From contig CBDCDZ010000004.1 of assembly GCA_965215565.1 (NCBI GenBank), positions 512,001-576,000 on the forward strand: DNA of 64,000 bases, read 5' to 3'. The position numbers and the translations under genes are program-made. Shown here one piece after another: positions 40,076-63,050 of the stretch; within the stretch, counting starts at the first letter, position 1; each line of letters opens with the position of its first letter. The DNA is from Trueperaceae bacterium (GTDB lineage: Bacteria; Deinococcota; Deinococci; Deinococcales; Trueperaceae). A model generated the notes under the pieces. That model was given only the letters and a program-made list of their open reading frames with translations, searched no databases and had not been told where the DNA came from.

Positions 40076-41431
40076 ATGACTCAGGTCGCACGCTATCAAC
40101 CGCAGCGGCTCTTCGCCGAGCACGAGGCGGTGAAGACCTTTCACGGTTTGGACCCGCTGACGGGGCTGCCTGTGCTGATTTATAGGTTTGCAGGCAGACC
40201 TACGGCGAAAGTCGGCGAACTCAAGTCCGAGGCGATTCCGACAATTTTAACGTCGAAGGTGGAGGGCGGGCGTGGTCAGCTCGTCGTCGCGTACGCGAAA
40301 GGGTACGAGCCGCTCCGCGAGCGCGTCGAGCCGCAAGAGGTTAGTGGGCTGCTGCGCGACAGCGCGACGGCGCTTTACGACGCGGCTAGGACGAGCGTCG
40401 TCCACGGCGACTTACGCCCTGAGCGCCTTTTGAAGGCGAACGATCACGTGATGGTGGAGGGCTACGGCGTGCCTTGGACCACCTGGGACGCCGCCTCGGA
40501 ATTCAGCGCGCCCGAGCGTATCGGCGGCGCGTCCGCCCCGGCCGACGTCTTTTCGTGGGCGCGCACCGTGCAGTTTCTGGCGGGGCAGCACCTCCCTCGT
40601 GAACTGAGCGAGATGATCGCCGCATGTCTAAACGCTGACCCTAAATACAGACCGAACGCCGAGACGATCTACAAGCAGATTGTGCAACCTGAGCGCGTAG
40701 GGGCGGCGGCGAAGGCGTCTCCTTTCGACAACCTCAACTTCGCCGAGCCTGGCGAGGAGACGTTCGCCCACAATCCTTTCGTCACTTCTATTTCCGACGA
40801 TAAGCCCGCCCAAAGCGAGACGGAACGCCCACGCGCCGCACGAGCGTTCCCTGTACGCGAAACGTCTGAACCTCTTACCGGCGACGATGACCCCTTCGGA
40901 TTCGGCGGCGAGATCGACGAACGCCCGCTGCGCAAAGGTGCCAGAGGACGCCGCACGGTTCTACTTATCGCCCTGCTCATCGCCCTTTTGGTCCTCGGCG
41001 CGCTCGCGCTCTTCAACCGGGATACGCTCAGCGCGTCTATAAGCGAAGCGGTGAGCGGCGTCGCGGGCGCAGGGCTAAGCGAGCGCTTGACAGCGGGCGT
41101 GGGCGCGGGGCTGTCTACGTTTGCGGGCATCATTACCGGCACGGGCGCAGCCTCTCAGAGCGGCTCCTACCTCGTCCGCGTGGAGGTCATCCCGGCGAAC
41201 GTGCAAGCTGAACTGTTCGTCGTCGAGGGTCCGGCGGGGTCTTCCCTGCCCTCGGCGCGCCCCATAAGCGTCGTGCCGGGCTCCGCTGTACTAGATAGGA
41301 CAGGGCTGTGGCGGCTCCAAGCGCAGGTTGACGGGCGGCTTTCCGAGGTTCAAGAGGTGCGCGTGCCCGAAGAGCGCACCGTGACCTTTAACGTTCCCTG
41401 GCGGAGCGCGCCCGCCGCGGAGGGTGAGTGA
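40076..41431 (+). CDS. Membrane-anchored Ser/Thr kinase-like protein (probable pseudokinase)
   Basis: HGDLRPE, SAPE, DVFSW and CLNADPKYRP present, with EGYG at the DFG position. One TM followed by a beta-rich C-terminal domain. Confidence 0.7.
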   Translation: MTQVARYQPQRLFAEHEAVKTFHGLDPLTGLPVLIYRFAGRPTAKVGELKSEAIPTILTSKVEGGRGQLVVAYAKGYEPLRERVEPQEVSGLLRDSATALYDAARTSVVHGDLRPERLLKANDHVMVEGYGVPWTTWDAASEFSAPERIGGASAPADVFSWARTVQFLAGQHLPRELSEMIAACLNADPKYRPNAETIYKQIVQPERVGAAAKASPFDNLNFAEPGEETFAHNPFVTSISDDKPAQSETERPRAARAFPVRETSEPLTGDDDPFGFGGEIDERPLRKGARGRRTVLLIALLIALLVLGALALFNRDTLSASISEAVSGVAGAGLSERLTAGVGAGLSTFAGIITGTGAASQSGSYLVRVEVIPANVQAELFVVEGPAGSSLPSARPISVVPGSAVLDRTGLWRLQAQVDGRLSEVQEVRVPEERTVTFNVPWRSAPAAEGE

Positions 41432-43761: not shown

Positions 43762-44271
43762 ATGCAACACTACCGGTCCGCCCTGGGTTTCTTTTGCGTC
43801 TGCTGCGTCATTGGGATGTCCCTGAGCGCCGCCTACGCGCAAACACCGCTCGCGGTCACCTTGGAGAGCTATCTCGTGACGGAAGTGACCCTGGAGGACG
43901 GCACCACCGAGGAGCAACTCGTCCCCACCGAGACTGCCGAGCCCGGTCAGGTCTTGGAATATCACCTCACGCTCCAGAACGAGAGCGAGACGGCGCTCTC
44001 GGAGGGCGTCGCGGCGACGGGTCCAGTGCCGGAGCGGACCCAGTACCTCGCCGAGTCCGCGACGGACGGGGCGGGATCTGACCTCACCTTTAGCGCCGAC
44101 GAGGGCGAGAGCTTTAGCGCCGCGCCTACTGTCACCGTGACGGACGAGAACGGCGACGAGCAAGAGGTGGCAGCCGAGCCGGGGCAGTATGACGCCGTGC
44201 GCTGGAAGCTGCTGAGCGGGCTCGAGCCGGGTCAGACGCGCATCTTCGTCTACCGCGTGGAGGTGCTCTAA
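43762..44271 (+). CDS. Small secreted single DUF11-like domain protein
   Basis: GGAGG RBS, signal peptide ending AYA-Q, PGQVLEYHLTLQN, and end LEPGQTRIFVYRVEVL. Confidence 0.8.
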   Translation: MQHYRSALGFFCVCCVIGMSLSAAYAQTPLAVTLESYLVTEVTLEDGTTEEQLVPTETAEPGQVLEYHLTLQNESETALSEGVAATGPVPERTQYLAESATDGAGSDLTFSADEGESFSAAPTVTVTDENGDEQEVAAEPGQYDAVRWKLLSGLEPGQTRIFVYRVEVL

Positions 44272-44361
44272 GCCTAACCTCTTTCAGTGTGTAACTTCGC
44301 TCGTCAACCCTTAACCCTCTCTAACCGCCCCGCCCTATTTTCACGCTCTCTCGGAGGAAAG

Positions 44362-47094
44362 ATGACCCTTGTACGCTCCGTTTTCGCGGTCTTGCTCGCG
44401 CTCGCTTTAGCAGTCGCCTTCGCGCAGCAAACCCCCGCCGGAACCCAGATTCAAAACCAAGCCACCGCCCAGTATGTCGATTCATCGGGCGAAACCCAGA
44501 CCACGAACTCCAACCAAGTCGTGACCATCGTCCAGCAGGTTTACGACGTGGCAATTACACCCGACAGCACCGGCACGCCCGGTGAAACTGATTTCGTGTC
44601 AGGTCAGTCCCAAGACGCCACGCCCGGTAGCACCGTGTACTTCCCGTACACGCTCACGAACGAGGGTAACGGCGCAGACAGCTTCGACTTAACGAGCGAT
44701 GTTGCCGTAGACAGCACGGGCGCTATCGCGGACACGACGCCTATTTTCTACCTTGATGAGAATAACGACGGCAAAGTGCAATCAGGTGAAGACATCGTTA
44801 CCTCTATAGATAACGTCGCTGCAGGCGAGTCCGTCAAGTTCATCATGGCGTACCAGATTCCTACGGACGTTGACACCACCGACGCAACAGCGGACACGGT
44901 GATCGCCAGCCCTATCGGAACGAGCCAGGGTGACACCGAAGCCCCTGTCGCCAGCGACAGCAACAACTACCACCAGACCAACGTTGTGCAGGGCGCAGCT
45001 CTCCGCGCGACGAAGACCGTGGACCAGGCGAACGCCGACCCCGGCGACACGCTTACCTACACTGTGACCGTCACGAATACAGGTTCGGCAGACGCAACCA
45101 ACGTCGTCATCTCCGACGAACTGCCTGGCGGCGTGACTTACGTTTCAGCGACAGCGACCCCTGCCAACACCGTTGACTTTGATGCAGGCACGTCAACCGT
45201 GAGCACGACCTTTGCAACCATCAATTCAGGTCAGGCTGTAGAGCTAGAGATTACGGCAACTGTCAATGACGACACCCTCCCCGGCGACTTAGCGAACACC
45301 GCCACTATCACTTATGACGATGATCAAGGCAACCCCAGAACTCCTGTAGATACCAACACCACGACCACGACGGTGCTACCAGAAGCAGGTGTGGCAGTCG
45401 GTCCGAACGGCGACCCGCTCGACGGGCTAGACGGCGACGACGACACCGCCATCAGCTACACCACGAGCGAGGGCTATACCATCACAGGGGCGGACAACGC
45501 CGACACCCAGGTCTTAGCCGAAGCGAACGCAGGCACCAACGTCAGCTTTATCAACACGGTTCAGAACACCGGAACCGACACCGACACCTTCAACCTCTCG
45601 ACCACGCCCACCCTTCCTGACGGCGCGTCCGTCATCCTGACCCGTCTCGACGGCACACCCCTAACCGACACCGACAACGACGGCACGGTGGACAGCGGAC
45701 CGCTCGCACCGGGTGAAAACTTCAGCTTCATCACCAGAGTTGTTTTACCGTCAAACGTTCCGGCTGAAGGCGACGCGGCTGTTAACGCTGCTGAAGTGAC
45801 CGTGACGGCGACCTCGAGCCTCAACCCAGACGTAGACGACGACACGACCAATGTCATCCAAGACATCGCCGGACCAGGCGTCGATATTGGTAACGATAAC
45901 GGCGACACAGAGGTCGATGGCGACGACACGGCAAGCGACATCGGCGTAAACCAAACCGTCGAGCCAGGCGAGAGTGCCTCGTTCCCGCTAGATATTGTTA
46001 ATACGGGCGGCAGCGACGACAGCTTCGACCTTACGGGTACCGTGGACTTCACCGACAACGAGGGCAACACCGTCACCGTCCCAGTGACCTACTACCCGGA
46101 CACGGACGGCGACGGCGTCTTAGACCCAGACGAGCTTACGGCTGGCCCGATCACCAACACGGGCACGATCGACCCAGGCGAAGAGGTCAGCGTCATCGCA
46201 GTGGTGAACGTTCCCGCAGACGCCGTGCCAACCGATGACCCTTCAACCGTCACGCTGATCGCGGACTCACCAAATTCGGGCGCGCAAGACACCTTCACGA
46301 ACAACACCGTCACCGTAGCCGAAGACGCCACCTTCACCTTCAGCCCCGACCGCAACGGCACAGCGCCAAGCCCCGGTACGGTCATCTACCAGCACACGCT
46401 CGAGAATACGGGCAACGTCAACATCACCGATATCGACTTCTCTGAGGTCTCGAGCGGTAACGACACCGGCTTCACCTACACTTATTCGTATGACGGGACG
46501 ACGTACTACGCCGTAGACGCGCTGCCCACTCTGACGGACGCAGCCGGACCGGGTGTCATCGCACCAGGCGACAACCAGTCCTTCTTCGTACAGGTCAACG
46601 TGCCTGCAGGCGTACCACAGGGCGCGGTCAACGTCGTCGAAGTTACAGCCGCAGCGACCTTCACTGCCGGAACCGCGACTCAGATCGTTACCGACACGAC
46701 TATCGTTGTCGGCGGTGAGGTCAGGGTTGAAAAAGAGTGGAGCTTAGACGGTGCCACCTTCTACCGAGGCGACGGCACCGACACCGATAATCTCCCTGTA
46801 CCCGAAGTCGCGCCAGGTGAGGACATCACCTACCGCCTCACGGTTACGAACATCGGCACGGCGGACGTTACTGAAATCGACGTCTTCGACCCCGTTCCAA
46901 CCTTCACTGACTTCGTTGAAGACTCCACCTCGGGCGGCGACGGCGTGGAATGCTCCACCGACGGCGGCACGGGCTACGGTGCGTGCCCGACGGGTGGCGA
47001 CATTGATACGGACGTCACCACACTCCGCTTCGACATCGCGACCTTAGCGCCTGGTGCGGAAGTCGTTCTCGAGTTCGACGTGCGCGTTCAGTAA
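44362..47094 (+). CDS. Secreted DUF11-repeat protein (putative major filament subunit)
   Basis: GGAGG RBS, signal AFA-QQTPAGT, repeated PGxTxTY..NTG Ig-like modules, acidic DxDxDG loops, and end FDVRVQ. Confidence 0.85.
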   Translation: MTLVRSVFAVLLALALAVAFAQQTPAGTQIQNQATAQYVDSSGETQTTNSNQVVTIVQQVYDVAITPDSTGTPGETDFVSGQSQDATPGSTVYFPYTLTNEGNGADSFDLTSDVAVDSTGAIADTTPIFYLDENNDGKVQSGEDIVTSIDNVAAGESVKFIMAYQIPTDVDTTDATADTVIASPIGTSQGDTEAPVASDSNNYHQTNVVQGAALRATKTVDQANADPGDTLTYTVTVTNTGSADATNVVISDELPGGVTYVSATATPANTVDFDAGTSTVSTTFATINSGQAVELEITATVNDDTLPGDLANTATITYDDDQGNPRTPVDTNTTTTTVLPEAGVAVGPNGDPLDGLDGDDDTAISYTTSEGYTITGADNADTQVLAEANAGTNVSFINTVQNTGTDTDTFNLSTTPTLPDGASVILTRLDGTPLTDTDNDGTVDSGPLAPGENFSFITRVVLPSNVPAEGDAAVNAAEVTVTATSSLNPDVDDDTTNVIQDIAGPGVDIGNDNGDTEVDGDDTASDIGVNQTVEPGESASFPLDIVNTGGSDDSFDLTGTVDFTDNEGNTVTVPVTYYPDTDGDGVLDPDELTAGPITNTGTIDPGEEVSVIAVVNVPADAVPTDDPSTVTLIADSPNSGAQDTFTNNTVTVAEDATFTFSPDRNGTAPSPGTVIYQHTLENTGNVNITDIDFSEVSSGNDTGFTYTYSYDGTTYYAVDALPTLTDAAGPGVIAPGDNQSFFVQVNVPAGVPQGAVNVVEVTAAATFTAGTATQIVTDTTIVVGGEVRVEKEWSLDGATFYRGDGTDTDNLPVPEVAPGEDITYRLTVTNIGTADVTEIDVFDPVPTFTDFVEDSTSGGDGVECSTDGGTGYGACPTGGDIDTDVTTLRFDIATLAPGAEVVLEFDVRVQ

Positions 47095-47106
47095 ACCCTC
47101 TCATCC

Positions 47107-47159
47107 TGTGGGAGCTTAGGCTCCCACACCCCTTCTTGGAGGGCTGCATAGGGCAGCCC
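47107..47159 (+). terminator. Two intergenic stem-loops after the major DUF11 subunit gene
   Basis: TGTGGGAGC/GCTCCCACA and GGGCTGC/GCAGCCC, without a long U-run. Confidence 0.55.
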
Positions 47160-47230
47160 CCACTATCTCACTAACTCTATTTTATGAACCTTATCAATCC
47201 CTTTACGAACCCTCTGGAAAGGCACCCCTT

Positions 47231-50050
47231 ATGACGCGACTATTCATCACTCTGAGCGTGCTGCTGAGCGGCTTGGTGCTTGCCATCACCCCGGCGGGGA
47301 CGGAGATTCGCAACCAGGCGAGCGCGGTCTTGAACGGCGAAACGTACCTCTCTAATGAGGTGAATACAGCGGTGCGTTCTCTCTGTATCCCCGAACTGAC
47401 GCCCAACGGCACACAAACCGCGCCGGGGCAGAGCGTCAGCGTGAGCGCGGGGGGGCGGGCGTACCTGCCCTATACGCTCACCAATGCGGGCAACGACCGC
47501 TTCACCTTCGACCTCTCGGTTGTGCAGGGCGCAGGCGACTGGACGCCCGGTGAGACTACGCTCTACCGCGACGCCAACCGCAACGGACGCTTGGACGCGG
47601 GCGAGACCGCCGCCCCGTCCGTCACGTTGGAGAGTGGCGCGGACGCTGCGCTCATCCTCGAGGTCGTGACGCCTGCGGGGGCGACGGGTGAACGAACCTT
47701 CTCACCCGTCGCGATTTGTGGAGGGACGAACGAAGCGGACGCGGAGAACTACGCGCTCGTACAAGTCGTCGAAGGTCCGGCGTTGCAACTCTTCAAGACG
47801 GTTGGAGGCTCCACCTTTGACCCCGGCGAGACCGTCCGCTTCGAGGTGCGCCTACTGAATAACGGCTCGCAGCCCGCCGAGAATCCCACCTTGACCGACG
47901 ACTTCGGATTCGCTGACTTAGATGGTCTCACCTTTGTGGGCGGTTCCGCAACAGCAACGCAGGGAACCGTTGAGTATTCAGACGGCGCGACCTGGACGCA
48001 GACGGAGCCGGGCACAGTGCGCAGCGTGCGGGTGCAACTCGCCTCTCTCGCCGTCGGTGGAGAGGTTATCCTCAGCTTCGAGATGCGCGTTTCGCCGGAC
48101 GCCGCGCCCGGCGAGCGGCAGAACCGCGCCGTCGCGACCGGACCCGGCGGACCCGCTGAAGTCACGGCGGACTTCACGGTAGGGGCGAGCTACCAGCACT
48201 TCTTGGGACCGGACGGCGACCCGAGAGCGCTTCCCGGCGGCGAAGGCAGCGCCGACGATTTACAGGTCAAAGACCGCTTGATTTACGGGCGCACGAGCTG
48301 TTTCGCACACACGCTAGAGAACGCGAGCACCGTTCAAGACCGCTACGAGATCGCCTTTAGCGGGCTTCCGGCGGGCGTCGCGGCGACGCTCAACACGGTT
48401 GACGGCGAGCCGCTGCCGCGCACCTTAGAACTACAAGCGGGCGAACGCCGCGACTTCAGGCTCTGCTTAACGGCGAGCGACGTCGTCCCGCCTTTCACCG
48501 TCACGCTCACCGCGACCTCACTCGCCACCGGTCAGATGAACCTCACCCGTGACCGCGTCGAAGAGGTCATAGCGGCAGGTCCCGAGCTAGACCTCGTCAA
48601 GAGCGCCGACCCCGTGGGTTCTATCGGCGAAGGCGAGGTGCTCACCTACACCCTCACGGTGACGAACAACCACGACTTCGATTTGAATGACGTGCGTATC
48701 ACTGACACCTTGGAAGGCTTCGAGCGTTCGGATGGACGAGCCGCCGAGATTCCCGCGTCCACGTTTGTCTCTGCCTCGGATGGCGGCGACTACGACGCGG
48801 AGACGCGCACCGTTTCATGGCGCGTGCTGAACCTACCCGCAGGCGAAAGCACCCGCTTCACCGTCCAGGTGCGGATGCCTGAAGACGTACCGGATGACAC
48901 CCTCTTCGTGCTGCGCAACCGTTTTAGCGTCGCGGCGCAGGAGTTGCCTGCGCCCAAAGCCTCCAACGAGGTCACGCACGCTTTCCCGCTCTTGTCGCTC
49001 ACCATCGAGAAGACGGTGGCGGAAGAGGTAGTACGCATCGGTGACACGCTGCGCTACACCGTGACGGTCTCCAACCCGAACGACGTGCCTTTAGACCTCA
49101 CAGTTGTGGACACGCCGCCCGAGCGCACCGCCTACGTAGCAGGAAGCGCGGTGGTGACGAGCGGCGCGAACGAAAAAGCGGTTGAACCCGAAGCGCGCGG
49201 CGACGAGTTGGTGTGGGACTTAACAGGCGACCCCGACTTCCGCTTGGAGCCTAGAGGCGCAGGCGGGCGCGACCGGGTGAGCATCTCTTACGCGCTCACC
49301 GTGCTACCCGGCGCGGAGGGTCCCCTGCAGAACACCGCCTACGCCCTCGGCACCTTTGGCGACGGCGACGGCGCGGTCTCGGGCGTCGTCATCGTGAGCG
49401 ACGAGGTGCAAGTGGACGTCACGTTAGACGAGCGTATCTTGAGCCAGCCCGACGCTCTCCTGAGCGGACGAGTCTACTTAGATGTCAACGAGAACTGCGT
49501 CTACGAGCACGGTCTCGACGTGCCGCTACCCGGCGCGAGGGTGCTCCTGCCGAACGGGTGGCAGACCTTGAGCGACGCAGAGGGCCGCTACACCTTCCGC
49601 GACTTAGAGCCCGGCGCGTGGTCCGTCACACTCGACGCGCGGTCCGCGCCCTTTGCGCCCGTGCCGCATCCCGAAGGCTTGGGGGAGGGCTACCAGCACC
49701 GCGTCGTCTTACAAGGTCTTACAGTGAGCGACTTTCCCTTGGTTGCACCCGCAGGCGCGATTCGCGCTTACCGGCAAACGACACTGCGCTTCGGTCCGCT
49801 CAACGTGGAAAAGCGCCTTATCGCCTTGCCGAGAGAGGACGGAACTGAAGGCGTGCGCGTGGTGCTCACGGTGACGAGCCCCGAACCCCTCCCCGAACTG
49901 GTCATCAGCGACCCCGTGCCCGGCGCGGAGCCGCGCACCTTTACCTTTGAGACTTTCGAGGGCGAAGAAACCCTGACCTACGACCTCGAGACCCCTGGGG
50001 ACGAGCCGCTACCCCTAACCGACCCCAACGCCCGCTGGAGATACCCATGA
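47231..50050 (+). CDS. Secreted DUF11-repeat protein with SdrD-B-like domain
   Basis: Signal VLA-ITPAGT, three K-[TS]...TY...N...D...N DUF11 repeats, and SGRVYLDVNEN...PLPGARV...SDAEGRYTF. Confidence 0.85.
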   Translation: MTRLFITLSVLLSGLVLAITPAGTEIRNQASAVLNGETYLSNEVNTAVRSLCIPELTPNGTQTAPGQSVSVSAGGRAYLPYTLTNAGNDRFTFDLSVVQGAGDWTPGETTLYRDANRNGRLDAGETAAPSVTLESGADAALILEVVTPAGATGERTFSPVAICGGTNEADAENYALVQVVEGPALQLFKTVGGSTFDPGETVRFEVRLLNNGSQPAENPTLTDDFGFADLDGLTFVGGSATATQGTVEYSDGATWTQTEPGTVRSVRVQLASLAVGGEVILSFEMRVSPDAAPGERQNRAVATGPGGPAEVTADFTVGASYQHFLGPDGDPRALPGGEGSADDLQVKDRLIYGRTSCFAHTLENASTVQDRYEIAFSGLPAGVAATLNTVDGEPLPRTLELQAGERRDFRLCLTASDVVPPFTVTLTATSLATGQMNLTRDRVEEVIAAGPELDLVKSADPVGSIGEGEVLTYTLTVTNNHDFDLNDVRITDTLEGFERSDGRAAEIPASTFVSASDGGDYDAETRTVSWRVLNLPAGESTRFTVQVRMPEDVPDDTLFVLRNRFSVAAQELPAPKASNEVTHAFPLLSLTIEKTVAEEVVRIGDTLRYTVTVSNPNDVPLDLTVVDTPPERTAYVAGSAVVTSGANEKAVEPEARGDELVWDLTGDPDFRLEPRGAGGRDRVSISYALTVLPGAEGPLQNTAYALGTFGDGDGAVSGVVIVSDEVQVDVTLDERILSQPDALLSGRVYLDVNENCVYEHGLDVPLPGARVLLPNGWQTLSDAEGRYTFRDLEPGAWSVTLDARSAPFAPVPHPEGLGEGYQHRVVLQGLTVSDFPLVAPAGAIRAYRQTTLRFGPLNVEKRLIALPREDGTEGVRVVLTVTSPEPLPELVISDPVPGAEPRTFTFETFEGEETLTYDLETPGDEPLPLTDPNARWRYP

Positions 50051-53000
50051 AGGTCTTATTTATCATTCTGACGCTACTCTCGCCCTTCGCTTTTGCTAAC
50101 GACGACGACACGGTCAAAGGTATCGTCCCCGGCGACGCTCTGGGCTGGGAGATCGAAGAGGTCGTGATGACGCTGTCGCTCGGTCAGGACAGCCCGGTGA
50201 AGCTCGAGATTTATTCCCCCGGCTTCGATCCGGACGACTACCGCGCCGCTTTGGACGGGCGCACCGAGCTGGGCGACGAGAATTACGGCGATCTTCCCCT
50301 AGCAGGTGAATTCGTATTAGAGAGCGGCGACACCCTCGCCCAGGGGCGCTACGAAGCCCAGCCGCACGAGTGGGAGACCCTTTATGAGGGCACCTTAGAG
50401 AAGGGCGCGTACACCCTGCGCAGCCGCTTTACCGGAAGGGGCAAAAACGCCTTTGTGGTGCGCGTGACGACGCCCGACCCGAGCATCAGCTCGCTCCGCT
50501 TCGCCGAAGGCACCGAACTTTTCGACGTGCGCTCTACCGAGTGGGTTCAAGCCTTTGAGGCCAAACTGCCCCGCGCGGGCACGCCCGCGCGTTACGCGCT
50601 CTACGACGGCGACGGCGCAAGCGAGCTAGAAGCGAAAGTCGTCATGGCGGACGGCAGCGAGCGCACCCTGCCCGTCTCGGAAGATTTGGAGTGGCAGGTC
50701 TGGGAATTCACTGAAGCGGGCACGTACACCGTCTACCTCCGTCAACCCGAAAGCGCGTATCAGTATTCCAATACCGTCGCGACGAAGACGCTCTACCCCG
50801 AGCCCGTTGTCGTAGACGTCGTGGACACGGCGGGCACCGCGCTCGGTATTCCCGCCCGCATCACGGGCTACAGCGAACGCACCGTGACGCTGGACGTGCC
50901 GAGCGAGTACCGACTCGTCGAGATTCAAACCGGCGGCGCGAGAGGTGACGGAACGCGAGTCAGCTTCGGCTTTGAAGGCGGACAGGTGCGTTACGTGCTG
51001 GAACAAAGTGCCGAAGCGGAGCCGGAGCCCGTAACGCCGCAGCCTGAGCCGACGCAGCCCGAAGCGCAAGACGCCACCGTGACCTTGACCAGGGACCTCG
51101 ACTTAAAAGAGGTCTTGCCCGGTGAAGTCGTGACCGTTTCTTTGACGGTCAGCCACGACAGCGACTCGCCCGTGACCTACACCTTGGAGGACACGCCGCC
51201 CGAGTGGTTGGAGCCGCTCGAGCCCACCACGTTCGAAGGCACCTTGGCAGCGAATGGTTCCGTTACGCACACCTACGGGGCGTCGGTGCGCTTCGGCGCG
51301 GAGGCGACGGGCGAGTTTACGGCGCGGCTGACCTCGTCTATCGGCGACGCGACTGCCGTAGACACCCTTGCGCGCCACCTGCTTCTCGTCGAAAAGAACG
51401 CCGCGTCTGAGACGGTGTTAGAGGGTCAAGCCACCTCGTTCACCGTGCGCGTGACGAACCCCTTGGGGCGCACCGTCTCCTTCGAGCTGCGCGAGTCGCC
51501 GCAGAGAGGCTTAGGCCTGGAAGGCGAGCCCGTCATCGACGTGACGCTGGGGGCGAACGAGAGCGAGTCCTTCGAGTTCACGGCGACGCCGGGGCGCACC
51601 GGCTCGCTCGATAACCAAGCGTCCGTCTTCATCAACCGGACGCCCGCCGGTTTCCCCGCTGGCGCGAGCTTAAACGTCAAGCCTATCCTCGTGCCCGAGC
51701 GCACCTCCTTAGTGACGCTGCCCTTTAACGTCGAAGCGGAAGGAAGAGTCGCCGAAGTCGAGGAGACAGAGGGCGGCACGCTCCTCATCCGCCACCGCGT
51801 CCCTTCGGATGCAACCTATGAGGTGGGCTCCTCGAGGCTGAACGGAAACCCTACCCCCGAGCCCTTAACGCAAACAGTGGAAGAAAGCGGCGAAGAGGTC
51901 ACCTACCTCTACTGGCAACTCCCCTACCTGACCGAGGGAACCCTGAGCTACGCCCTCGCCCACCAGGAGAGCTTGGACGCCTTGGCGGAGCCCGCTTTAA
52001 CTTTCAAATTCGGCAAGCGCGAGCTTTTCTTAGCGGGCGAGGTGCCCTTTGGAGAGGTGCGGGGTGCGCGAGAGGTCGTCCCTGCTAGGCGCAACGGGCT
52101 CATCCGCGAGCCCTTTCCCGGTACGGTTTACCGCACGACGGACGCGGCGAAAGTCGTTTTGGAGGGTCCCATCACCGAAGAGGTCACGCTCCTCTTAAAC
52201 GGCGTGAGCGTGAATAGCGACGCGCTAGGTAAGCGCGTGATTGACGAACAGAGCGGCGTGCAGCGCCTCGAGTACTACGGCTTGCCCTTAGAGGTGGGCA
52301 GCACCCTCATCGAAGCGACGATGGGCGGCGCACGCGACCAAGTCGAGGTCTTCCGCGCGGGCAACCCGACCTCTTTGGAGATCACCCCGACGATGTTGGA
52401 GGCGGACGGCGTCACCCCCGCCCAGTTCGAGATTCGCGCCCTAGATGAGTTCGGCGTGACGAACGGCTTCGGCGCGGTGAGCGTGCAGACCGATCTGGAA
52501 CCTCTAGACGACGACGCTTTCCCCGCCGAATCCGGCTACCAAGTTCTCTTAGAAGATGGCGTCGCGACCGTTCGCCTAGAACCCGTTCTAACGCCGCAGC
52601 AAACCAACTTACAGGTCCGCTTCAACGACTTGGACACGCGAGCGTCCTTTTACCTGGGCGGTACGGACGAACCCCTTTACCTCTATCAGGGCAGCGTGAG
52701 CGTGAAGCTGAGCCAGGGCGAGTTGAGCACTACGGGCGTGGCGAGAGGGTACGTCGAGACGCCTCTCGGGAACGGCACGCTGCAAGGCGCACTCGACACG
52801 AACGGCGGCGTCGCTGAGCAGGATGACCCTTCAGGGCGCTTTCCCATCACGGGCAGCGGCAACGCCGCGCAGCCCGCGCTACGCTCCGATGACCTCGTCG
52901 CGGTGCGTTATGGCGACGACACCTTTAGCGTCGGCTACTACGCGGACAGCTTGGGCGTGCCGGGTTTAGAAGGTGTAGCCAGTGGTACGGCGTTACAGGG

Positions 53001-54707
53001 CGAAGTGCGTACCGACTTTGTAGGCGGCGAACTCGTCGGCAACGCCTACGCGAGCCTCCTACCCACCGATCAACTGAGCGAGACGATTGTTCCCGACGGC
53101 ACGCGGCGCTACACCTTGAGCGCCGCGCCCATCAGACCCGGCAGCGAGAGCGTGACGGTGCGAACGGGCGCAGAGGCGCGCGTGTTGGAGCGCTTGGAAG
53201 ACTACACCTTAAATGATGTGACGGGCACCCTTACGCTCGCTCAACCTCTTTTCCCGACTGACGTAAGCGGCCTAGAAACCCGCCTCGAGGTCTCCTACGC
53301 ACCTGCTGAGAGCCCCCGTGACACCCTTTCGGCAGGGGGCGGCGTTCAATATTCGTTCGGTGATTGGGTGCTGGGTGCGGGCATCGCTAGCGTGGGCGGT
53401 GTCCAGTTAGGCGCGTACGCGGACTATGTAGGGGCGGGCTCGAGCTTTAGCCTCACCTACCGCTACGACGAGGCGTTGCGCTCGCAGATCGGTCTTTCGG
53501 GCACCCTGACGCAAGGCTCTTTCAACGCGAGCGCGAACATCAGCTACACGGACGCGCTACAGGGACAAGCCCGCGCCGCTTACAGCTTTAGCGAAGGGCA
53601 ACGCGCCGCCCTCGAGCACAGCGCCCGCAGCACCCGCAACCAGACAAACGCCTTGTACGAACTCGATTTGGGCGACTTCACCTTAGGTTTAGGGGCGGGC
53701 TACTTGTGGGAAGCGCAGACCTTTAGCGCCGTCGCCCGCGCTGGGTATAGGACAGGCAACGCCGACTTCCGCCTCACCCACACGCAACCCTTTGGCGATA
53801 CTGCGCCGATCAGCGACTTCCGCGTGAACTACCAGATCGGCGAGAGTTTGGCGGCGGACTTAGGACTCGTCTACACCTGGGGGGGCGAACTCGTCGGGAA
53901 CGTCGCTTTAGTCCAATCTTTAGGGCGCGGCAACCTCTCGGTTTCGTATCAACTCCCCGGCGCAGACGGACGCGGCAACCGCGCCCGCTTCGGGATTGAG
54001 ACGCCCCTACCCCTTAGCGACGCCTGGAGCTTGGATCTCTCCGCGAACATAGATCAAGGGTTTAGTGACGGCACCACCTTGGCGAGCGCGGGTGCGGGCG
54101 TGCGCTACAGCAAGGGACTTCGTGGCTACTGCCTCCTCCGAAGTGAGCTACGACAGCGCGCAGGACTCTCCCTTCAAACTCACCTTTAGGGGGGGCGCAA
54201 CCGGACAGTTGGACCATCAGCAGACCTTATCCTTCGACGCGACGTATAGGCTCATCCCCGAAGCCGAGGGGGAGTTCACGGCGGCGTACGCACTTAGAAG
54301 CAGCTACCTCACCCTCTTGACCTATCACCGCTTAGAGACGGGCGGCGACGAAGGCAGCGAGTTAGAGGGCGAACTCGCCCCGACGCTGCACCCAAACAAA
54401 GGGTGGCAACTGCGCCCCGGCTTCGCCTACCGCATCCCCTTGTGGAACGACCGGAAGAGCACCTTTTTAGCCTCGTTGGGCGGACATTACTACCTTACGG
54501 ACTACGCGGGCGTGGGCGGCTCGGTCTATCACGAGTGGCAGCCTGCGACGAACAGCAGCGCCACCGCCTTTGGCGTCGAGGGCTCGGTGCGCGTGATTGA
54601 CGAGCTGTGGTTGGCGCTCGGGTACACCTTTGAGGGCTTTGACGGGCTCAGTGAAGATACGAAGAGCGGGCTACTTACGCTTTGAACTCTTAGGCGGAGG
54701 TCAGTGA
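50047..54707 (+). CDS. Large DUF11-containing protein with C-terminal outer-membrane beta-barrel (frameshifted at ~54115 and ~54671)
   Basis: Signal AFA-N. Amphipathic G/aromatic beta-strands continue from ORF 50047-54189 into ORF 54065-54685 and end YLRFELLGGGQ-TGA (54705-54707) in a third frame. Confidence 0.75.
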
Positions 54708-54789
54708 TGCGACCCGTAAACGCCGCTAACACCCGCATCCGCAAGAACGGCGACACCTCTTGTCTCACATAAACGAAAGACCTATTCCC

Positions 54790-57700
54790 ATGACTCCAGA
54801 CCTCTTTTACACGCTTCACCCGGTATTTTAGGTGCGCTCATCCTCTTCGCCTCTCTGCGCCTACCGTCCACGCCGAGGGCAGTAAAGACCTCATCCGCAA
54901 CGGCGGCAACCGCGCCTTTTTAGAGCACCGCACAGGCACGAGCGGCTCCTATCAGACGGCAGGCATTCCGCGCGTCACGGTCATCAGAGTGTATGCTAAC
55001 GCGGGCGAAGTGGTGGCGCTAGGCTCCTCCGCCAACGGTGTCGGGAACGGTACGATCCGCGTGCGTGGGCCGAGCGGGTTCACACCTTTTGCGTGCCCAG
55101 CCCCGGGCACAAACAATACGGGTAAAATTCTTAACCGAGCGCAAGAGGTTGCGGGAGCCAACTATAACGGCGTTAATCCCGGCGGCTATACGCCCTGCAC
55201 CTTTCGTCGCGCTTGAGTACGGGTATCTATGAGGTGGACTTCATCCAACCCGCGACGGCGAACAGCACGAACCCCACAACGCTCGCTGTGAGCGCTAACT
55301 GGCCCGCGCAGGCCAGCGCGGACAACTGGGTCACCGCTTGGGACGTCACAGTCTTCGATGGCAACGTAGCGCAGAGCGGGCGCGTCTTCGCCCGCTACTA
55401 CGCGCTCAACCTCGGGAGCGCCAACGCGAGGGTCAACTTAGACGTCATCGTACAGACTATCGACGGCTACCGCTACGAACTCGAGCAAGACATCGAGCCC
55501 TTCGGCTTCATCTTCTTCGCCAACCGCAAGGGCTTTAGAGATGGGGAGGGCAACGCCATCTACCGCTCGATTCAGCTCAACGACGACGACACGCTTCAGC
55601 CGGGTCAGACCTTTAACGCGCCCGACCAACCCGACGACATCGACAACAACGAAGTGACGCACAAAATCTTTTTGAACGAGCCGGATGGCAGTATGCCAGC
55701 TACCGCCGCCACACCGAGCGGCACCGACACCTGGCTCTACCGCCCCGACGCCAAAGCGCCGCCCATTCCGCAGGACTTCGCCTTTACAGGCGTGGACGGA
55801 ACCCAGGACCAAGCGGGCACGGGCTTGGGGGGTACGTTCTCCTTCGTCAACCCCTTAGACGGCACCGACGACGCCCCTGCGCCCAACGCCTACAACATCA
55901 CGCTCGAGTTCTCGAGCGGCGCAACCAAGCGCGTGCTCGCAGGCACCGCCGACCCCGACGTCACCACCGAAGTCTTCTGGGATGGTCAAGACGGCGACGG
56001 CAACGACGTACCCGCAGGCAGCGGTGACTTCACCGCCACGGTCAGACTCTTCGCGGGTGAGGTTCACTTCCCCTTCCTAGACGTGGAGGACGCGCCCACC
56101 GGGATAAGCATCACGCGCCTCAACACACCTGCAGGCAGCGCCACCACTGGCATCGCCGACCCTGGACGCATCTACTACGATGACAGCATCTTTACGAATG
56201 GGCAGAAAGAGCTTGACGGTATCATCACACCCCCTGCCGCGCACACCTTTACGGGCGACTTCGGCAACCATAGAGGCATTGACACCTGGGTCTACTACCC
56301 GACCTCTGAGCCCGAACAAGCGAGCATCGTCATCCGCGAGGCGGACCTCTCGGTTGCGATGACGGACAACCCCGACCCTATCTTGGCAGGTGGTCCTACC
56401 TCCTACACCTTTACGGTGAGCAACCTTTCAGATGGCTCAGCGGGAACGGTGGACGCCGTGGACGCCGCCGTCACAGACGCCTTTCCAGCCGAGTTGACGA
56501 ACGTACAGTGGCGCTGTGAAATCACGGCGGAGGGCACGTTCGCGAATGAACCCCTAGCGGCGAGTAGCTGCGCGATCAATTCAGGTGCGGGCGACATCAG
56601 CACGACGGTGAACTTGAAGCGCGGCGCAACCGCGACCTTCACCGTCACGGCGACGGTAGCTCAAAACGCGAGCGGCATACTGACGAACACGGCTACCGTA
56701 GGACGAGGAACCGACGCCAGTGACCCTGATGCGAGCAACAACGAAGCGAGCGAAACGACGACGATAGACGCGAACCCAGGCGTCGCGGGAAGCGTCTTCG
56801 ACGACGCAAACGGCGACGGCATATTCGACGCGAGCGAGAGCGGTTTAGCGGGTGTAACGGTGGTGCTCTATGACTCAAATGCAAATAGCTGCCGCGCCGC
56901 TCAAACGAACGCAGCGGGCGACTACGTCTTTACGAACGTCGCGGACGGCTCCTATCAGCTTATCGAAGCGGCGTCCGAAACTGTACCGACCCCAGCGGCA
57001 TGTCCACCCGCCGAAGAGGACCCAGCCGGATACGGCTCGACGACAGCGAACACGTTAAATGTGAATGTGGCGGGCTCGAGCCTCTTCGCGCAGAACTTCG
57101 GCGATACGACTGGTTTTGACTACGGCGACGCCCCCGCGACCTATACCGAGGCTGAAATTGTCGCAAGTGACAACATCTACTTGGGCTCGACGCCACCCGA
57201 TATTGACGCGGGCAACTGGCACGACGGTGTCGATGACAGCCAAAACGCCACCGACGACGACACGAACGACACGCCCTCTGCGTTTACAGCGGGCAGCGGC
57301 GAGGAGGACAGCGTCATCTTCGGTCCTTTGGATTACACGATGGCGGGCGAAACCTTTAGCCAGGACGTGAGCGTCACGAATGACAGCGCCTCTCCCGCTT
57401 ACGTCCGCGGCTGGATAGACTTCGACCGTAACGGCACCTTCGATGCCGACGAGGTCTCAGACGAGGTGACGGTGGCGGCGAACGCAGGCACGACCACAGC
57501 TAACGTGACCTTCAACATTCCCGCGAATAGCGCTAATACCTACGACGGTATCAACCCCGGTCCGAGCTTCGCGCGGGTCATCGTGTCGGACACGCCCAAC
57601 ATTCCCCTCACGGGTCAGGGCGCAGGCGAGGTGGAAGATCTGCGGGTCAACATCGCCGACGTGGACTTCTGCACCTTCGCACCCGGCGAAACCTTTTCAG

Positions 57701-60700
57701 GGTTTGACTTTACCAACGTTACAGGTCTCACAAACGACGCGAGCGGCGCGAGAGACGCGGTTGCCCTGTTCGAAAACGCCGCCGTTGCACCCGACGGAAC
57801 GCCCTTAGACGTGCGGATGACGGTCAACATGCCCTCGGGCAGAATCAATTCGTTCGGTAACGGCACCCTCAACCAAAACGTCGAAGATACCGGAGCCTAT
57901 TTGAGCATCACAGGAGACAGTGACCAGGACTACGCGGCGGAGGTGCGCCTCGAGTTCCTCCTCGCCAACACCTCAGTCCCTTACGCCGTGTCCGGTCAGT
58001 TCTCCACGAATGACATCGACGGAAAGAGCAACCGCACCGAGGCGCTCCTCTTGAATATTGAGAGCTTCGACGGTTTCGCGCTCGGCGACCCGACCACGAT
58101 TCGAGCGCCCTACGTCGAGGGTGACTATACGGCGTTCACAGGCACGGGGGACCGCGACAGCGAGCCAGACAGCGCAGTTGTCTACACCTTTTCGAACCAG
58201 ACCCGCGTGGACCTGATCGTGCGAGGTACCGACATTGTAGGCGAAACAACCGCAGGTTTCGGCATCAATGGACGCCTCGCCAGCCAGCAACTCGGCTCAC
58301 CCGTCTGCAGTTCGATACCGCCGCCCGCCGATTACGGTGACGCACCCGCAAGTTACGGCGACGCGGGACACGCCGTGTCCCAAATGCCCGAGCTTTACCT
58401 AGGCGCGGTAGCCCCCGACGAGGAAAGCCAGCCTCAAAACGCAGCCAATGGCGGCGCAGACGGAACAGGCGACGACGCCAACGGGACGGACGACGAGGAC
58501 GCCTTTGACACGCTACCCCCTCTCGCTACGGACAGCAGCAGCTACACCCTAGAGGTGCCTTTGACAAATCCGAGCAGCGCCGCGACGCTTTACGGCTGGG
58601 TTGACTTCGACGGTGACGGGCGCTTCTCAGCGAGCGAGGCGGCAACCGCTAACGTGGCTGCCGGGGCGAGCACGGCGACGCTCAGTTGGAACAGCGCCAA
58701 CGGCAACGCACCCGCAAACCTCAGTGAGGGTACGACCTTTGCCCGCTTGCGCCTGACGACGGACAGCCTCACGGACGAGGCGAGCACCACCAGCCAGGAC
58801 GAACGCGCCAGCGTCGCCGCGACTGACGGTGAGGGCGAGGACTACCCCGTCGAGGTGCTCGGGCGCGTCTACACCTGCCCTACTGCTAGGGCTGACCTCT
58901 GGTTCGCCAATGACGAATCGGGCAGCGTGAGCGACGCCGAGTTCAACGACGCCCTCGACTTCCTCTACCAAATCTCTGACGAATTTATCTACGACGATGT
59001 AACGGGTGTAAAGGCCGGCGTGACCGCTTGGATTAACCTTGAGAATTCGCTCGAGGTTGTTATGCCCATCACGGAAACTTTCGGTGATCCTGGCGACTCA
59101 GGGTTGATCGGCTCAGGCGGAGTCACTACGGACGGTGACGGACGGGGGCTGCGTGAGCTTTACAGCGCTAGACAAAACCCCTCGGGTCGGGGTACGCGCT
59201 TGGATTACGCCACAAACTACCTCGCTGACCTCATCATCGCCGGCAATGGTCGCAGGGCGGACACCCCACAAGTCGCCGTTATCCTGACAGATGCTAATGA
59301 GGGTCAGTTGACCGTGGCAGATCAAGGGGGCGGCAGCGCCTGGATCGATGAAGCTAACCGCTTGAGAAATGCGGGTCCTGACGGCACGAACATCCTCGTG
59401 ATCGTTACTCAGGAAGCCGCAGCCGCCTATAGCGACCCGGACAGCGAAGCTAAGTCCGTCGTTGACGCCGTTGCAGGCGCGAACGGACTCGTTCTTGTTG
59501 TACCGACCTACGTTGAGGCTGCAGAAGCCACCAATGGGTACGTCCAGCAAACAGTAAACGCGATCTGTGAACTCACCACGCGCGAGCCCACCCCGGAGAT
59601 CGACCTCGAGCTGACCCAAGCTGCGCCAAGCGTAGCCACGCAAGGTGAAAGCGTCACCTTCACCCTGACGTTAGAAAATAAAGGGCCAGACAGCGCCACC
59701 GGGATAGAGGTCACGGACCTCTTACCGAGCGGTCTCACATTCCAGTCAGCCTCCTCTACGAACTACAACGCGAGCACGGGTGTATGGAACGTCGGCGCGT
59801 TGGCGAGCGGTGACAGCGTGGTGCTCGAGATTACAGCCACCGTCGATGAGGGCGTACCTGCGCAGATCATCAACAGCGCCGAAGTCACTGCCGCTGAGCA
59901 GACCGACACGGATTCAACGCCGGACAACCGCGCCGATGCGCCGGATGAGGACGACACAGTCTCCGCTACCCTAGATGTCTACAGTCTCTCCCCTAACGAG
60001 GGCAACATCGTTATCAATGAAGTGCTTTTCGACCAGAGCAGGAGCGGCAACGTGAGCGCCGCAAATAACGACGAGTTCATCGAACTCTATAACGCAGGGG
60101 ACATAACCGTTGACCTCTCCGGCTGGGAACTCATCGACGCTAACCTCATCGCTGGCGACTTCGACGGTCCGAATGGGAATATCAATGGCGCAGAGCCCTA
60201 TACCTTCCCCGCTACCCAGCTTGCGCCGGGCGAATACGCGATTATTTGGATCGGTCAGAGCGCCGCGAGCCGTGACGCGCCGACCGCTGCCTTTCAGACC
60301 TGGTTAGGTAGAAACATAAGGCTTAAAAACAGCGGTGACGACGTGTGGCTCTACGACAACGAAGGGCGCATTGTAGACTACATCGCGTACGGCAACGATA
60401 CGGCGGTGAACACGCCACCCCCCGCCTCGCTAGGACTGTGGGACCCTCAGTACAACGCCAACCTCGACAGCAGCGGCAATAGCAACGGTACGAACGGCAC
60501 CGTTAAGGGTCAGTCCATCAGCCTGACGCCCAATGGCGCAGATAGCAACACGAGCGCCTGCTGGGAGCCTACCGCGAGCGGTGAGGCGGACGGACGCTGC
60601 GCGAGTTATCTACCTACTATCGACAGCGACGCAAGGGAGGATAGCGGCACACAGCTCGTCACCAGCGTTGCTCAAAACAACAACGCCTTCATCTCGGGTA

Positions 60701-61788
60701 CGCTCTTCTACGACGACGGCTTAGAAAATGGAGACGCGAACAATGCTTTTCGGGAGGGCAGTGAACGGGGTGCATTCGGCATCGTCGTTACAGTCACCGA
60801 CGGCGCGGACACCGTGAGCACAACAACGGACGGCGCGGGCAACTACAGTCTTATCGTTCCTGGTTCGTTCAGCAACAAACAACTCACGCTCTCTCATTCA
60901 AGGCAGCCCACGACGGGATACAACGACGGAACAGATGAGGTACTAGCAGCAGTTTACGCAGATGCAGACGCCGCTAGCGTCACCTTCTCCTTCACGGGCA
61001 GCAGCGTCACCTACAACTTCGGCGTCGCGCGTCCCAGCACTCTGCGCCCCGATCAAAACGGACAGGTAGGTCCCGGCAGCGCGATCAGCTACACCCACCT
61101 CTTCACGCCGGGCACGTTGGGTGAGGTCAGCTTGAGCGTTTCAGGAACGTACAGCTATCAGGTCTTCAGAGATGTGGATTGCGACGGCATCGTCCAGCCG
61201 GACGAGCAGGCGGATGTGATCGCCGCAGGGTTTGACGTTGACAATACCTGGCCCCGAACAGAGGCCGGCGCTCTAGCTCCTTGCGCCCTGGAACTGCGTG
61301 TATTCGTCCCCGAAGGTGAAGCGAGCGGACGCATCGACTTGGCGACGCTGAGCGCCAACCTCGCCTACGCCGATAATTCGGCTGTGGTAGACAGCGTCAG
61401 CGTGACGGATGTGACGACAGTAACGACGGGTGGACAGCTCGAGCTAACCAAGCGCGTCGCCAACGTCACGCAAGGCGCGGACTTTGGCACCGTCGGCGAG
61501 GGTGAGCCGGGGGATGTGCTCGAGTACTGCATCAGCTACCGCAACTTAGGCACTGAAACCTTGACGCAAACCCTCTTTAGCGACCCCGTCCCCTTCTTCA
61601 CAACATTTGTAACTGGAGCTTACAACAGTCAAGACATCTTGTGGACCCACAACGGCGCGGAAAAGCCCCTGAGCGCCACCACAAACGACGACGAAGGTGA
61701 ACTGAGTAGCGGCGTCGTGCAGGTTGATATTGGCGAGGTGGCAGCGGGTGAGGCAGGCGAGGTCTGCTACAGAGTACGCATTAGATAG
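54790..61788 (+). CDS. Giant multidomain adhesin (DUF11, SdrD-B, GEVED x2, vWA, lamin-tail); 5' end frameshifted
   Basis: ORF 55213-61788 has GEVED/GEGEDY, DESGS MIDAS and IVINEV...EFIELYN...DLSGW motifs. The N-terminal part VHA-EGSKDLIRNGGNRAFLE...VYANAGE lies in another frame (54794-55216) and the signal peptide in a third. Confidence 0.8.
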
Positions 61789-62168: not shown

Positions 62169-63050
62169 TCAGATCAATTCATATCCCAAAGCCTTCAGTT
62201 CTTTAGTTATGCTATACGCGACCTCTTCGATGCTGTTACTGAACTTCTTATAAATCATCCCACTAATATCACTAGGAAGCTCAACTTCTCCGGTATACAA
62301 GCAGCAGGTACGGGAACGACCTAGTTTACCGACAAAATAGCCAAATTCAAAAATTACATTCGGCCTAGCACGTAAGCTTTTGGCACGCTCACCATCTGCC
62401 TTCTCCTCTTCTTTAGCAAGATAAGCAACCTCATCTGGGGTCAAAAGTATGAAGGCGTAGCCGACATCACTATGTTTTTCAAACTTCTCTATAATTGTTA
62501 AACCTTCATCTGCTTGACGATGCAATACGATAGGTTCTAAGCCAATCTCAGATAGAAATATTTCAAGATTTGTTTTAGCAACTTCATCGTGACCGTGTAC
62601 TAAAAATACGCGCTTCGATAGACTTACTGATTCATCTTCTGAAAGGTTTTCGCGTGGCTGAGCTACCACTGATGGAATTAACTCTAGTCTACCTAAGATG
62701 GATTTGAGGCTACGAATTTGCCTATCAATGTCTCTATGTAAATCCTTAATCTGCCATCCAAGCGAAGATGAGCGCCCAGGTACAGCGACTCTAACATACC
62801 CAGGACTGTACTCTTTTGAAACTTCATCGGTTGTGAATATGCGTTTAAGCATTTCTTCGTTGTAGTCATCCCACAAACGGTATTCTTCTTTAGCGCTCTC
62901 ATAGGAATCTTGAGTATTGACCAAAGCGCTTTTTAGCTCAGAACCTTTGACGATGCGGTCTTCAATTCTCGACGCTGCCTCTTCCCTTGAAATTTTAAGG
63001 CTAGCAGATTCGTTCATTTGCCTAGTTTCTTGTTTACGAGTATTGGGCAT
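62169..63050 (-). CDS. TIR-like (CAP12/PF10137-type) nucleotide-binding protein with N-terminal helical domain
   Basis: RVFLVHGHD, GLEPIVL, TIIEKFE, AFILLTPD, RARPNVIFEFGYF and ELPSDISG motifs. AT-rich. Start may be ATG 63017. Confidence 0.88.
   Translation of the reverse strand: MPNTRKQETRQMNESASLKISREEAASRIEDRIVKGSELKSALVNTQDSYESAKEEYRLWDDYNEEMLKRIFTTDEVSKEYSPGYVRVAVPGRSSSLGWQIKDLHRDIDRQIRSLKSILGRLELIPSVVAQPRENLSEDESVSLSKRVFLVHGHDEVAKTNLEIFLSEIGLEPIVLHRQADEGLTIIEKFEKHSDVGYAFILLTPDEVAYLAKEEEKADGERAKSLRARPNVIFEFGYFVGKLGRSRTCCLYTGEVELPSDISGMIYKKFSNSIEEVAYSITKELKALGYELI

Follow-up and report, generated by a model that had tools for sequence, protein, structure and literature searches.

A split DUF11 domain in a five-gene operon of a Trueperaceae bacterium: a candidate donor-complemented surface fibre

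The window analysed here is a 64,000-nucleotide stretch of DNA from a Trueperaceae bacterium of the phylum Deinococcota (assembly GCA_965215565.1, contig CBDCDZ010000004.1, positions 512,001 to 576,000 of the forward strand), and is part of contig C4 in a near-complete genome of 4.49 Mb. It contains an operon of five plus-strand genes, flanked by guaA-like and gyrB-like genes (names from our reading of the sequence), in which the domain DUF11 (PF01345) is divided between proteins. A preliminary description had listed five plus-strand genes, three truncated C-termini and two N-termini resembling the missing part, and all of these are found where it placed them. Every DUF11 match in the genome (7/7) falls inside the operon. 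Genes 2, 3 and 5 score 94.6, 89.1 and 139.3 bits, respectively, against a curated cut-off of 24.6 bits; gene 1, at 19.4 bits, is under the cut-off. Set against the prepilin- or lipoprotein-type N-termini of type IV and type V pili, the signal peptides of the operon proteins, judged by eye, resemble the ordinary Ala-X-Ala type. We refer to a terminal DUF11 domain that lacks the last two strands as an acceptor, and to an N-terminus that carries them as a donor.

43762..44271, plus strand: gene 1, a secreted protein of 169 aa with one acceptor-type DUF11 domain, in which the last two strands are missing, as is the Lys that forms the bond
44362..47094, plus strand: gene 2, 910 aa, multi-Ig, with a donor at the N-terminus and an acceptor at the C-terminus; candidate major shaft subunit
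44425..44538, plus strand: donor hairpin of gene 2, two strands, Asn codon at 44455-44457
46711..47091, plus strand: acceptor domain of gene 2, Lys codon at 46732-46734 and Asp codon at 46888-46890
47107..47162, plus strand: two RNA hairpins 3ʹ of gene 2, a candidate attenuator or mRNA stabiliser favouring gene 2 over the downstream genes
47231..50050, plus strand: gene 3, 939 aa, with an N-terminal donor (47285-47374), three whole DUF11 repeats, an SdrD_B-like domain and a variant C-terminal domain; candidate base adaptor and terminator
49796..50047, plus strand: variant C-terminal DUF11 domain of gene 3, Lys and Asp kept, one strand more
50047..54707, plus strand: gene 4, Ig-like domains followed by a predicted outer-membrane barrel of ~38 strands (~52680-54704)
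54707..61788, plus strand: gene 5, large, variable and adhesin-like (SdrD_B, GEVED, vWA-like, lamin-tail and DUF11 domains), with a terminal acceptor; candidate tip
61429..61785, plus strand: acceptor domain of gene 5, Lys in 17/17 and Asp in 16/17 rows, Cys pair frequent

Is the division of the domain real? We built a DUF11 profile of 123 positions from 95 complete internal repeats, excluding repeats at protein ends. The C-terminal domains of genes 1, 2 and 5 of the window align to profile positions 10-91, 11-91 and 14-91, respectively, and each protein stops there. Positions 94-121 and 95-121 are matched instead by the mature N-termini of gene 2 and gene 3, respectively. Shuffled sequences scored as well in 1 of 1000 cases for gene 2 and 6 of 1000 for gene 3, and three control N-termini, those of genes 1, 4 and 5, gave no match to the end region of the profile. 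Among homologues, including the window, donors fall in the last third of the profile for all gene 2 (17/17) and gene 3 (10/10) proteins, and for genes 1, 2 and 5 the acceptor alignment extends to positions 89-92 at the protein end in 11/13, 13/17 and 15/16 proteins, respectively, the remainder being partial local alignments. No second donor-bearing gene was found outside the operon among the 14582 open reading frames of the genome. The split of the DUF11 domain is real and conserved. The pattern of truncated acceptors and N-terminal donors reported in the preliminary description is confirmed, the two halves being complementary on the profile. Its statement that gene 3 has no such acceptor holds only approximately, since the last domain of gene 3 derives from DUF11 (HHalign 89%), has an extra strand and keeps Lys in 16/18 and Asp in 18/18 rows.

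Complex prediction, previously suggested as a check on the donor, was run with the gene 2 acceptor. The model combines gene 2 residues 1-38 and 763-889 (mature numbering), with a 65-row alignment for each piece; the rows include 64 of 120 homologues picked for similar length, and the row that lacks Asn is not among them. The complex score was 0.91, and the best of three controls reached 0.06. In a benchmark of the mark applied to this score, 116 of 157 solved pairs pass, as do 2 of 215 mismatched pairs. The runs share no fewer than 99% of their contacts, and the predicted local distance difference test (pLDDT) value of the partners is at least 91. Donor residues 13-17 are predicted to pair with acceptor residues 818-822, and donor residues 29-34 with 768-772. 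This is the register expected of the last two DUF11 strands, and the gene 2 donor is modelled as completing the gene 2 acceptor. Donor-strand complementation by gene 2 is thus supported both by the gap between the complex score and its controls and by the complementarity of the profile halves.

DUF11 has been renamed CLIPPER, and the available text of the corresponding study shows that Lys and Asn are bonded in it, with an Asp close by (PMC12617251; Protein Data Bank (PDB) structure 9IFR). A search with our gene 2 profile finds 9IFR at E 0.00049, and the alignment brings all three residues into register, the Asp being one off the published number by our own count. In the terminal domains of the operon, the acceptor carries Lys and Asp and the donor carries Asn: the domain ends at profile position 91, ahead of the strand with the Asn. 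This division of the isopeptide triad was overlooked in the preliminary description, and we add it here. We tallied the triad in 136 gene 2 rows, namely the window, all 120 homologues and 15 locus proteins. All three residues are kept in 119 rows. The exceptions are nine rows with a gap at the Lys column, two with Glu and one with Ala in place of Asp, two fragments, one longer fused protein without Lys, and two rows in which Asn and Lys are both lost. Gene 5 acceptors retain Lys in 17/17 and Asp in 16/17 rows, and of the six internal repeats present in the window, four hold Lys, Asp and Asn within one domain, as judged by eye. From these residues, a covalent isopeptide lock at the junctions is probable. 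The gene 2 donor Asn and acceptor Lys are both lost at locus L045:823-16391 (genome G007) and in P0224; at L045 the gene 5 acceptor Asp is also lost and the gene 3 donor Asn is retained. This lineage is a natural candidate for a non-covalent version.

Gene 4 was modelled on the whole orthologue of a same-genus genome, G002 (residues 544-1546, 52-row alignment), with a pLDDT of 91 and a predicted template modelling (TM) score of 0.73. The model has three Ig-like domains, then 7 strands, an inserted domain and 31 strands, giving ~38 by our own count, and porin superpositions cover residues 325-1000, as for a closed barrel. Fold searches returned generic barrels, with a query TM score of at most 0.17 and best Z values of 13.5-14.7 at a root-mean-square deviation (rmsd) of 9-10 Å (range 6-11 Å). 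FimD and PapC gave query TM scores of 0.11-0.17, the level of other barrels, and no usher family match was found in any of 13 gene 4 proteins. The gene 4 profile gave only chance-level matches to the PDB, where no solved structure is close. SprA, suspected from a motif, is not among the matches listed in the fold searches, and there was no SprA family match. The SprA barrel has 36 strands, and we know of no other barrel as large as one of ~38. The first core domain of gene 4 also derives from DUF11 (HHalign 93%) but lacks its first strand, and it has a strand motif in common with the last domain of gene 3 (HHalign 74%). One idea drawn from these similarities is that the two domains may pair.

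In a synteny survey of the kind that the preliminary description had proposed, the operon proved common within Deinococcota, with homologues in other phyla. In 20 regions fetched by gene 2 hits, which are not a random sample, a gene 4 homologue lies on the same strand in all 20, and gene order is conserved. Across 301 Deinococcota genomes, the gene 4 profile matches 203 at E ≤1e-30 and the gene 1 profile matches 264 at E ≤0.001, a count that includes paralogues, a few weak hits and the unpublished genome G255. In total, the gene 4 profile finds 2668 representatives, 1098 of them at E ≤1e-30. The operon is patchy, often multicopy, and found on plasmids. All five genes are on the megaplasmid of Thermus thermophilus HB8 (TTH_RS10905, 10910, 11750, 10920 and 10925); at this place on pTT27, strain HB27 retains gene 4 and a 3ʹ portion of gene 3 and no more (L050:8414-14901), so that the two strains offer a possible natural comparison. 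A Deinococcus radiodurans plasmid carries genes 2-4, and on a Synechococcus plasmid the five genes are arranged as 2-1-3-4-5. PMC5382914 includes DR_B0037 among its tabulated proteomics results; this old tag could not be tied to the operon, and we did not use it. A gene 1 scan gave eight loci, seven of them outside Deinococcota: Geobacteraceae, Gemmatimonadota (three), Pseudomonadales, Nitrospirota and Epsilonproteobacteria. A short gene 2-like protein adjoins at least 6 of these 7, and a gene 4 homologue at least 5. At L054 (Gemmatimonadales) the gene 4 homologue is fused behind a donor N-terminus, forming a gene 3-gene 4 fusion. Gene 2 by itself retrieved nothing when genome contigs were scanned with it, PDB searches with single sequences were uninformative, and the Atlas returned unnamed clusters only.

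The 90 bases 3ʹ of gene 2 fold better than shuffles (z < -2) in 16 of 19 operons, with z -2.84 in the window. The same threshold is passed after genes 1, 3 and 4 in 0/14, 1/16 and 2/15 operons, a comparison weakened by the fact that the controls after genes 3 and 4 are mostly coding DNA. In the pap operon, a hairpin lies 3ʹ of the major subunit. The conserved hairpin suggests that gene 2 encodes a major subunit made in excess. Promoter and terminator scans gave nothing above chance level. One alternative to a long pilus is a short modular adhesin, in which the same joints would make a finite gene 3-gene 2-gene 5 stalk on the barrel, with gene 2 present only once or a few times. With ~7 Ig-like domains in gene 2, few copies would give reach, and several different gene 2-like genes are present at each of L056, L057 and L059. 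We nonetheless regard this as unlikely, since gene 2 holds both halves of the domain with a near-invariant triad, permitting unlimited repetition, and since the hairpin points to an excess of its product.

What is the function of gene 1? Modelled alone, it superposes on residues 20-109 only of 9IFR (Z 8.3, rmsd 2.4, 90 of 123 residues), a superposition that ties with other Ig-like folds and leaves ~30 C-terminal residues unmatched. Foldseek gave no match at E ≤0.001, and the gene 1 profile had only chance-level matches to the PDB. By our own alignment, Lys is present at the equivalent position in 0 of 31 gene 1 rows and Asp in 4 of 31. Lacking the Lys, gene 1 should bind a donor without locking it, and the chances that it is a donor-shielding chaperone are about even.

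We propose that the operon builds a donor-complemented surface fibre by way of the split DUF11/CLIPPER domain, a reading that we hold with a probability of roughly three in four and that is drawn from sequences and models. The subunits would be exported by Sec. Gene 5 would begin the chain as the tip, its C-terminal acceptor receiving a gene 2 donor, and gene 2 would then repeat head to tail, with N-termini outward and growth at the base. At each junction, the acceptor Lys and Asp would meet the donor Asn and probably form an isopeptide bond with no enzyme. Gene 3 would fill the last acceptor, stop growth and link the fibre to gene 4, whose barrel would serve as outer-membrane conduit and anchor. 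Gene 1, unable to lock for want of the Lys, may hold donors reversibly before assembly, a step that we think could equally well be wrong. Adhesion and biofilm formation are the likely uses. The shaft, tip, base and pore roles assigned in the preliminary description fit the domain content, the conserved order, the gene 3-gene 4 fusions and the hairpin after gene 2.

Several points weigh against this proposal. A fibre, the bond and the localisation of the proteins are not among our observations. The halves of a split domain may pass the complex test through likeness to solved CnaA-type folds. Lys770-Asn11 is missing from the 25 best-defined contacts, though both residues are within the interface, and it is homology that points to the bond. 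Among the internal repeats, the Lys is absent from two of six, both in gene 5. The co-loss of Asn and Lys probably reflects one lineage and is only suggestive. In addition, the two-piece model does not separate pairing between chains from pairing within a chain. That model, made from two pieces of one protein, would also be compatible with a gene 2 product that closes on itself, either as a ring or as a circularly permuted monomer, the proteins then acting separately. This is very improbable, however: ~725 residues of Ig domains lie between the ends of gene 2; genes 3 and 5, with one half each, would remain incomplete; and at L045 the loss of the gene 2 Asn is accompanied by loss of the gene 5 Asp.

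The fibre proposal also has to accommodate gene 1, which folds alone at high confidence in the model (pLDDT 94). In the family of the window, gene 1 matches 97 of 102 genomes and gene 4 matches 35 of 102. A gene 1 paralogue occurs alone in 5 of 5 tested family genomes without a gene 4 match, 4 of which have no other gene 2-like match, and it adjoins a Sel1-repeat gene in 3 of 3 cases checked. Two such stand-alone paralogues are listed here.

G000:C4:4352820-4353338, minus strand: in this genome, also stops before the last two strands
L060:6818-7348: also stops before the last two strands

In this genome the paralogue is present with no donor-like N-terminus outside the operon, and hence the truncated fold persists where no donor can be recognised for it. 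Its occurrence without gene 4 complicates the earlier assignment of gene 1 as a cap or chaperone; gene 1 may act more broadly as a chaperone, or may play no part in the fibre. The retention of gene 1 without the rest in many family members would also suit an envelope scaffold, in which gene 4 would tether a polymer that lies in the periplasm or the S-layer zone and does not extend as a pilus. The N-terminal Ig-like domains of gene 4 could hold a chain on the periplasmic side, and envelopes in the phylum are described as unusual in the accessible part of a 2026 review (PMC13721041). A tether needs no barrel so wide, however, gene 5 is long and variable with adhesin-type domains, and the distribution of the operon is patchy, often multicopy and plasmid-borne; a scaffold is therefore improbable, more so than a short adhesin.

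A last point against the fibre proposal concerns the reading frames in the window: at least five small indels within 54116-55217 (1.1 kb) disrupt genes 4 and 5. Gene 4 lies in three frames, with -2 shifts at 54116 and 54673, and the 5ʹ part of gene 5 is broken near 54790-54860 and 55202-55213. The preliminary description began gene 5 at 55213; its true start is near 54707, and 55213-61788 is an open frame only. Other places in the genome tested for splits gave 0 of 26 (2 of 28 with genes 4 and 5 included). Both genes are whole in G002, gene 5 of G001 is also split, and contigs of related strains retain the frame at several of the breaks. The tight clustering of the indels favours a local assembly error over decay in this strain.

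How does the operon compare with known systems? It has the CLIPPER/DUF11 domain of PF01345 and 9IFR, with the same Lys, Asp and Asn positions, and stalks of secreted adhesin-like proteins are common to both; here, however, the domain is cut ahead of the last two strands and the Asn lies on another protein end. As far as the main text of PMC12617251 is available, it treats the bonds within one chain, and the word “donor” is absent from it. Like chaperone-usher pili (Fim, Pap), the operon would have an acceptor-only tip, a shaft subunit with donor and acceptor, a donor terminator, a small periplasmic helper and an outer-membrane barrel. Unlike them, it has a two-strand donor, multi-domain subunits of 300-1000 aa, a probable covalent lock and a helper that is acceptor-like and not a strand donor. 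The usher barrel, according to the accessible part of PMC13721041, has 24 strands, against ~38 in the gene 4 model. No chaperone, usher or fimbrial Pfam match was found, and the Pfam and NCBIfam matches of the operon proteins include no PapD-like chaperone, in agreement with the preliminary description; gene 1 is one DUF11-like domain. That description also reported no sortase. We add that the subunits carry no C-terminal LPXTG, all C-termini ending in a β-strand without a membrane tail; sortase genes were not searched for genome-wide.

The chemistry has precedents. BsaA fibres of Clostridium perfringens, as described in the portion of 10.1101/2024.11.04.621531 available to us, likewise place an Asn on the donor and a Lys plus an acid residue on the acceptor (“exchange and lock”), but they belong to a monoderm, are SipW-dependent, and have a TasA-like subunit, a Glu catalyst where the operon has Asp, and no outer-membrane barrel. 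No TasA-family or SipW match was found among the operon proteins. Sulfolobus threads (Saci_0406; PMC11607397, accessible text) also combine donor-strand complementation with intermolecular isopeptide bonds; unlike the operon, they are archaeal, with a single N-terminal strand and no outer membrane. In AbpX, tafi, TLP-1, Pam pili of the candidate phyla radiation (CPR) and enterococcal WxL pili, Ig-like folds are completed by an N-terminal strand of a neighbour, and none is described, in the accessible accounts, with DUF11 halves or such a barrel; AbpX is a weak match to the first domain of gene 2 (E 0.003). We found no DUF11-based system in the accessible parts of PMC13721041 or of the tafi, TLP-1, Pam and WxL literature, and no description of the operon in the searchable literature, supplements being outside the scope of the search (those of PMC12617251 could list such proteins). 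PMC3711429, considered as a DUF11 paper, concerns DUF111. The principle, donor-strand fibres and exchange-and-lock chemistry, is known, and the parts list and assembly route appear to be new. The operon would be a variant of donor-strand pili, possibly a new class. It is an open bet, at even odds, whether it represents an undescribed diderm pilus and secretion class in at least seven phyla, which would have an enzyme-free covalent split-domain lock, a chaperone built like an acceptor and capping donors, as PapD in reverse, and passage of the subunits through a dedicated outer-membrane barrel of ~38 strands.

Two neighbouring genes were seen in the window. A lone TIR-domain gene (62169-63050, minus strand; PF10137, CAP12/Pycsar effector type, E 5.6e-35) lies in lower-GC DNA between the operon and the gyrB-like gene, with no adjoining cyclase seen. 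Upstream of the guaA-like gene, at 40076-41431 (plus strand), our own reading finds a protein with a membrane segment, whose N-terminal part resembles a degenerate kinase.

If the fibre proposal is true, a non-homologous, probably covalent class of pilus would be added to those of two-membrane bacteria, and roles would be given to a large unannotated family, that of gene 4, with 1098 representatives at E ≤1e-30. The very large barrel would be a new target for studies of folded-protein export, and the natural donor-acceptor pairs of thermophiles might find use as protein tags that ligate themselves. Since the whole operon is present in the genetically tractable T. thermophilus HB8, these proposals are testable at once.

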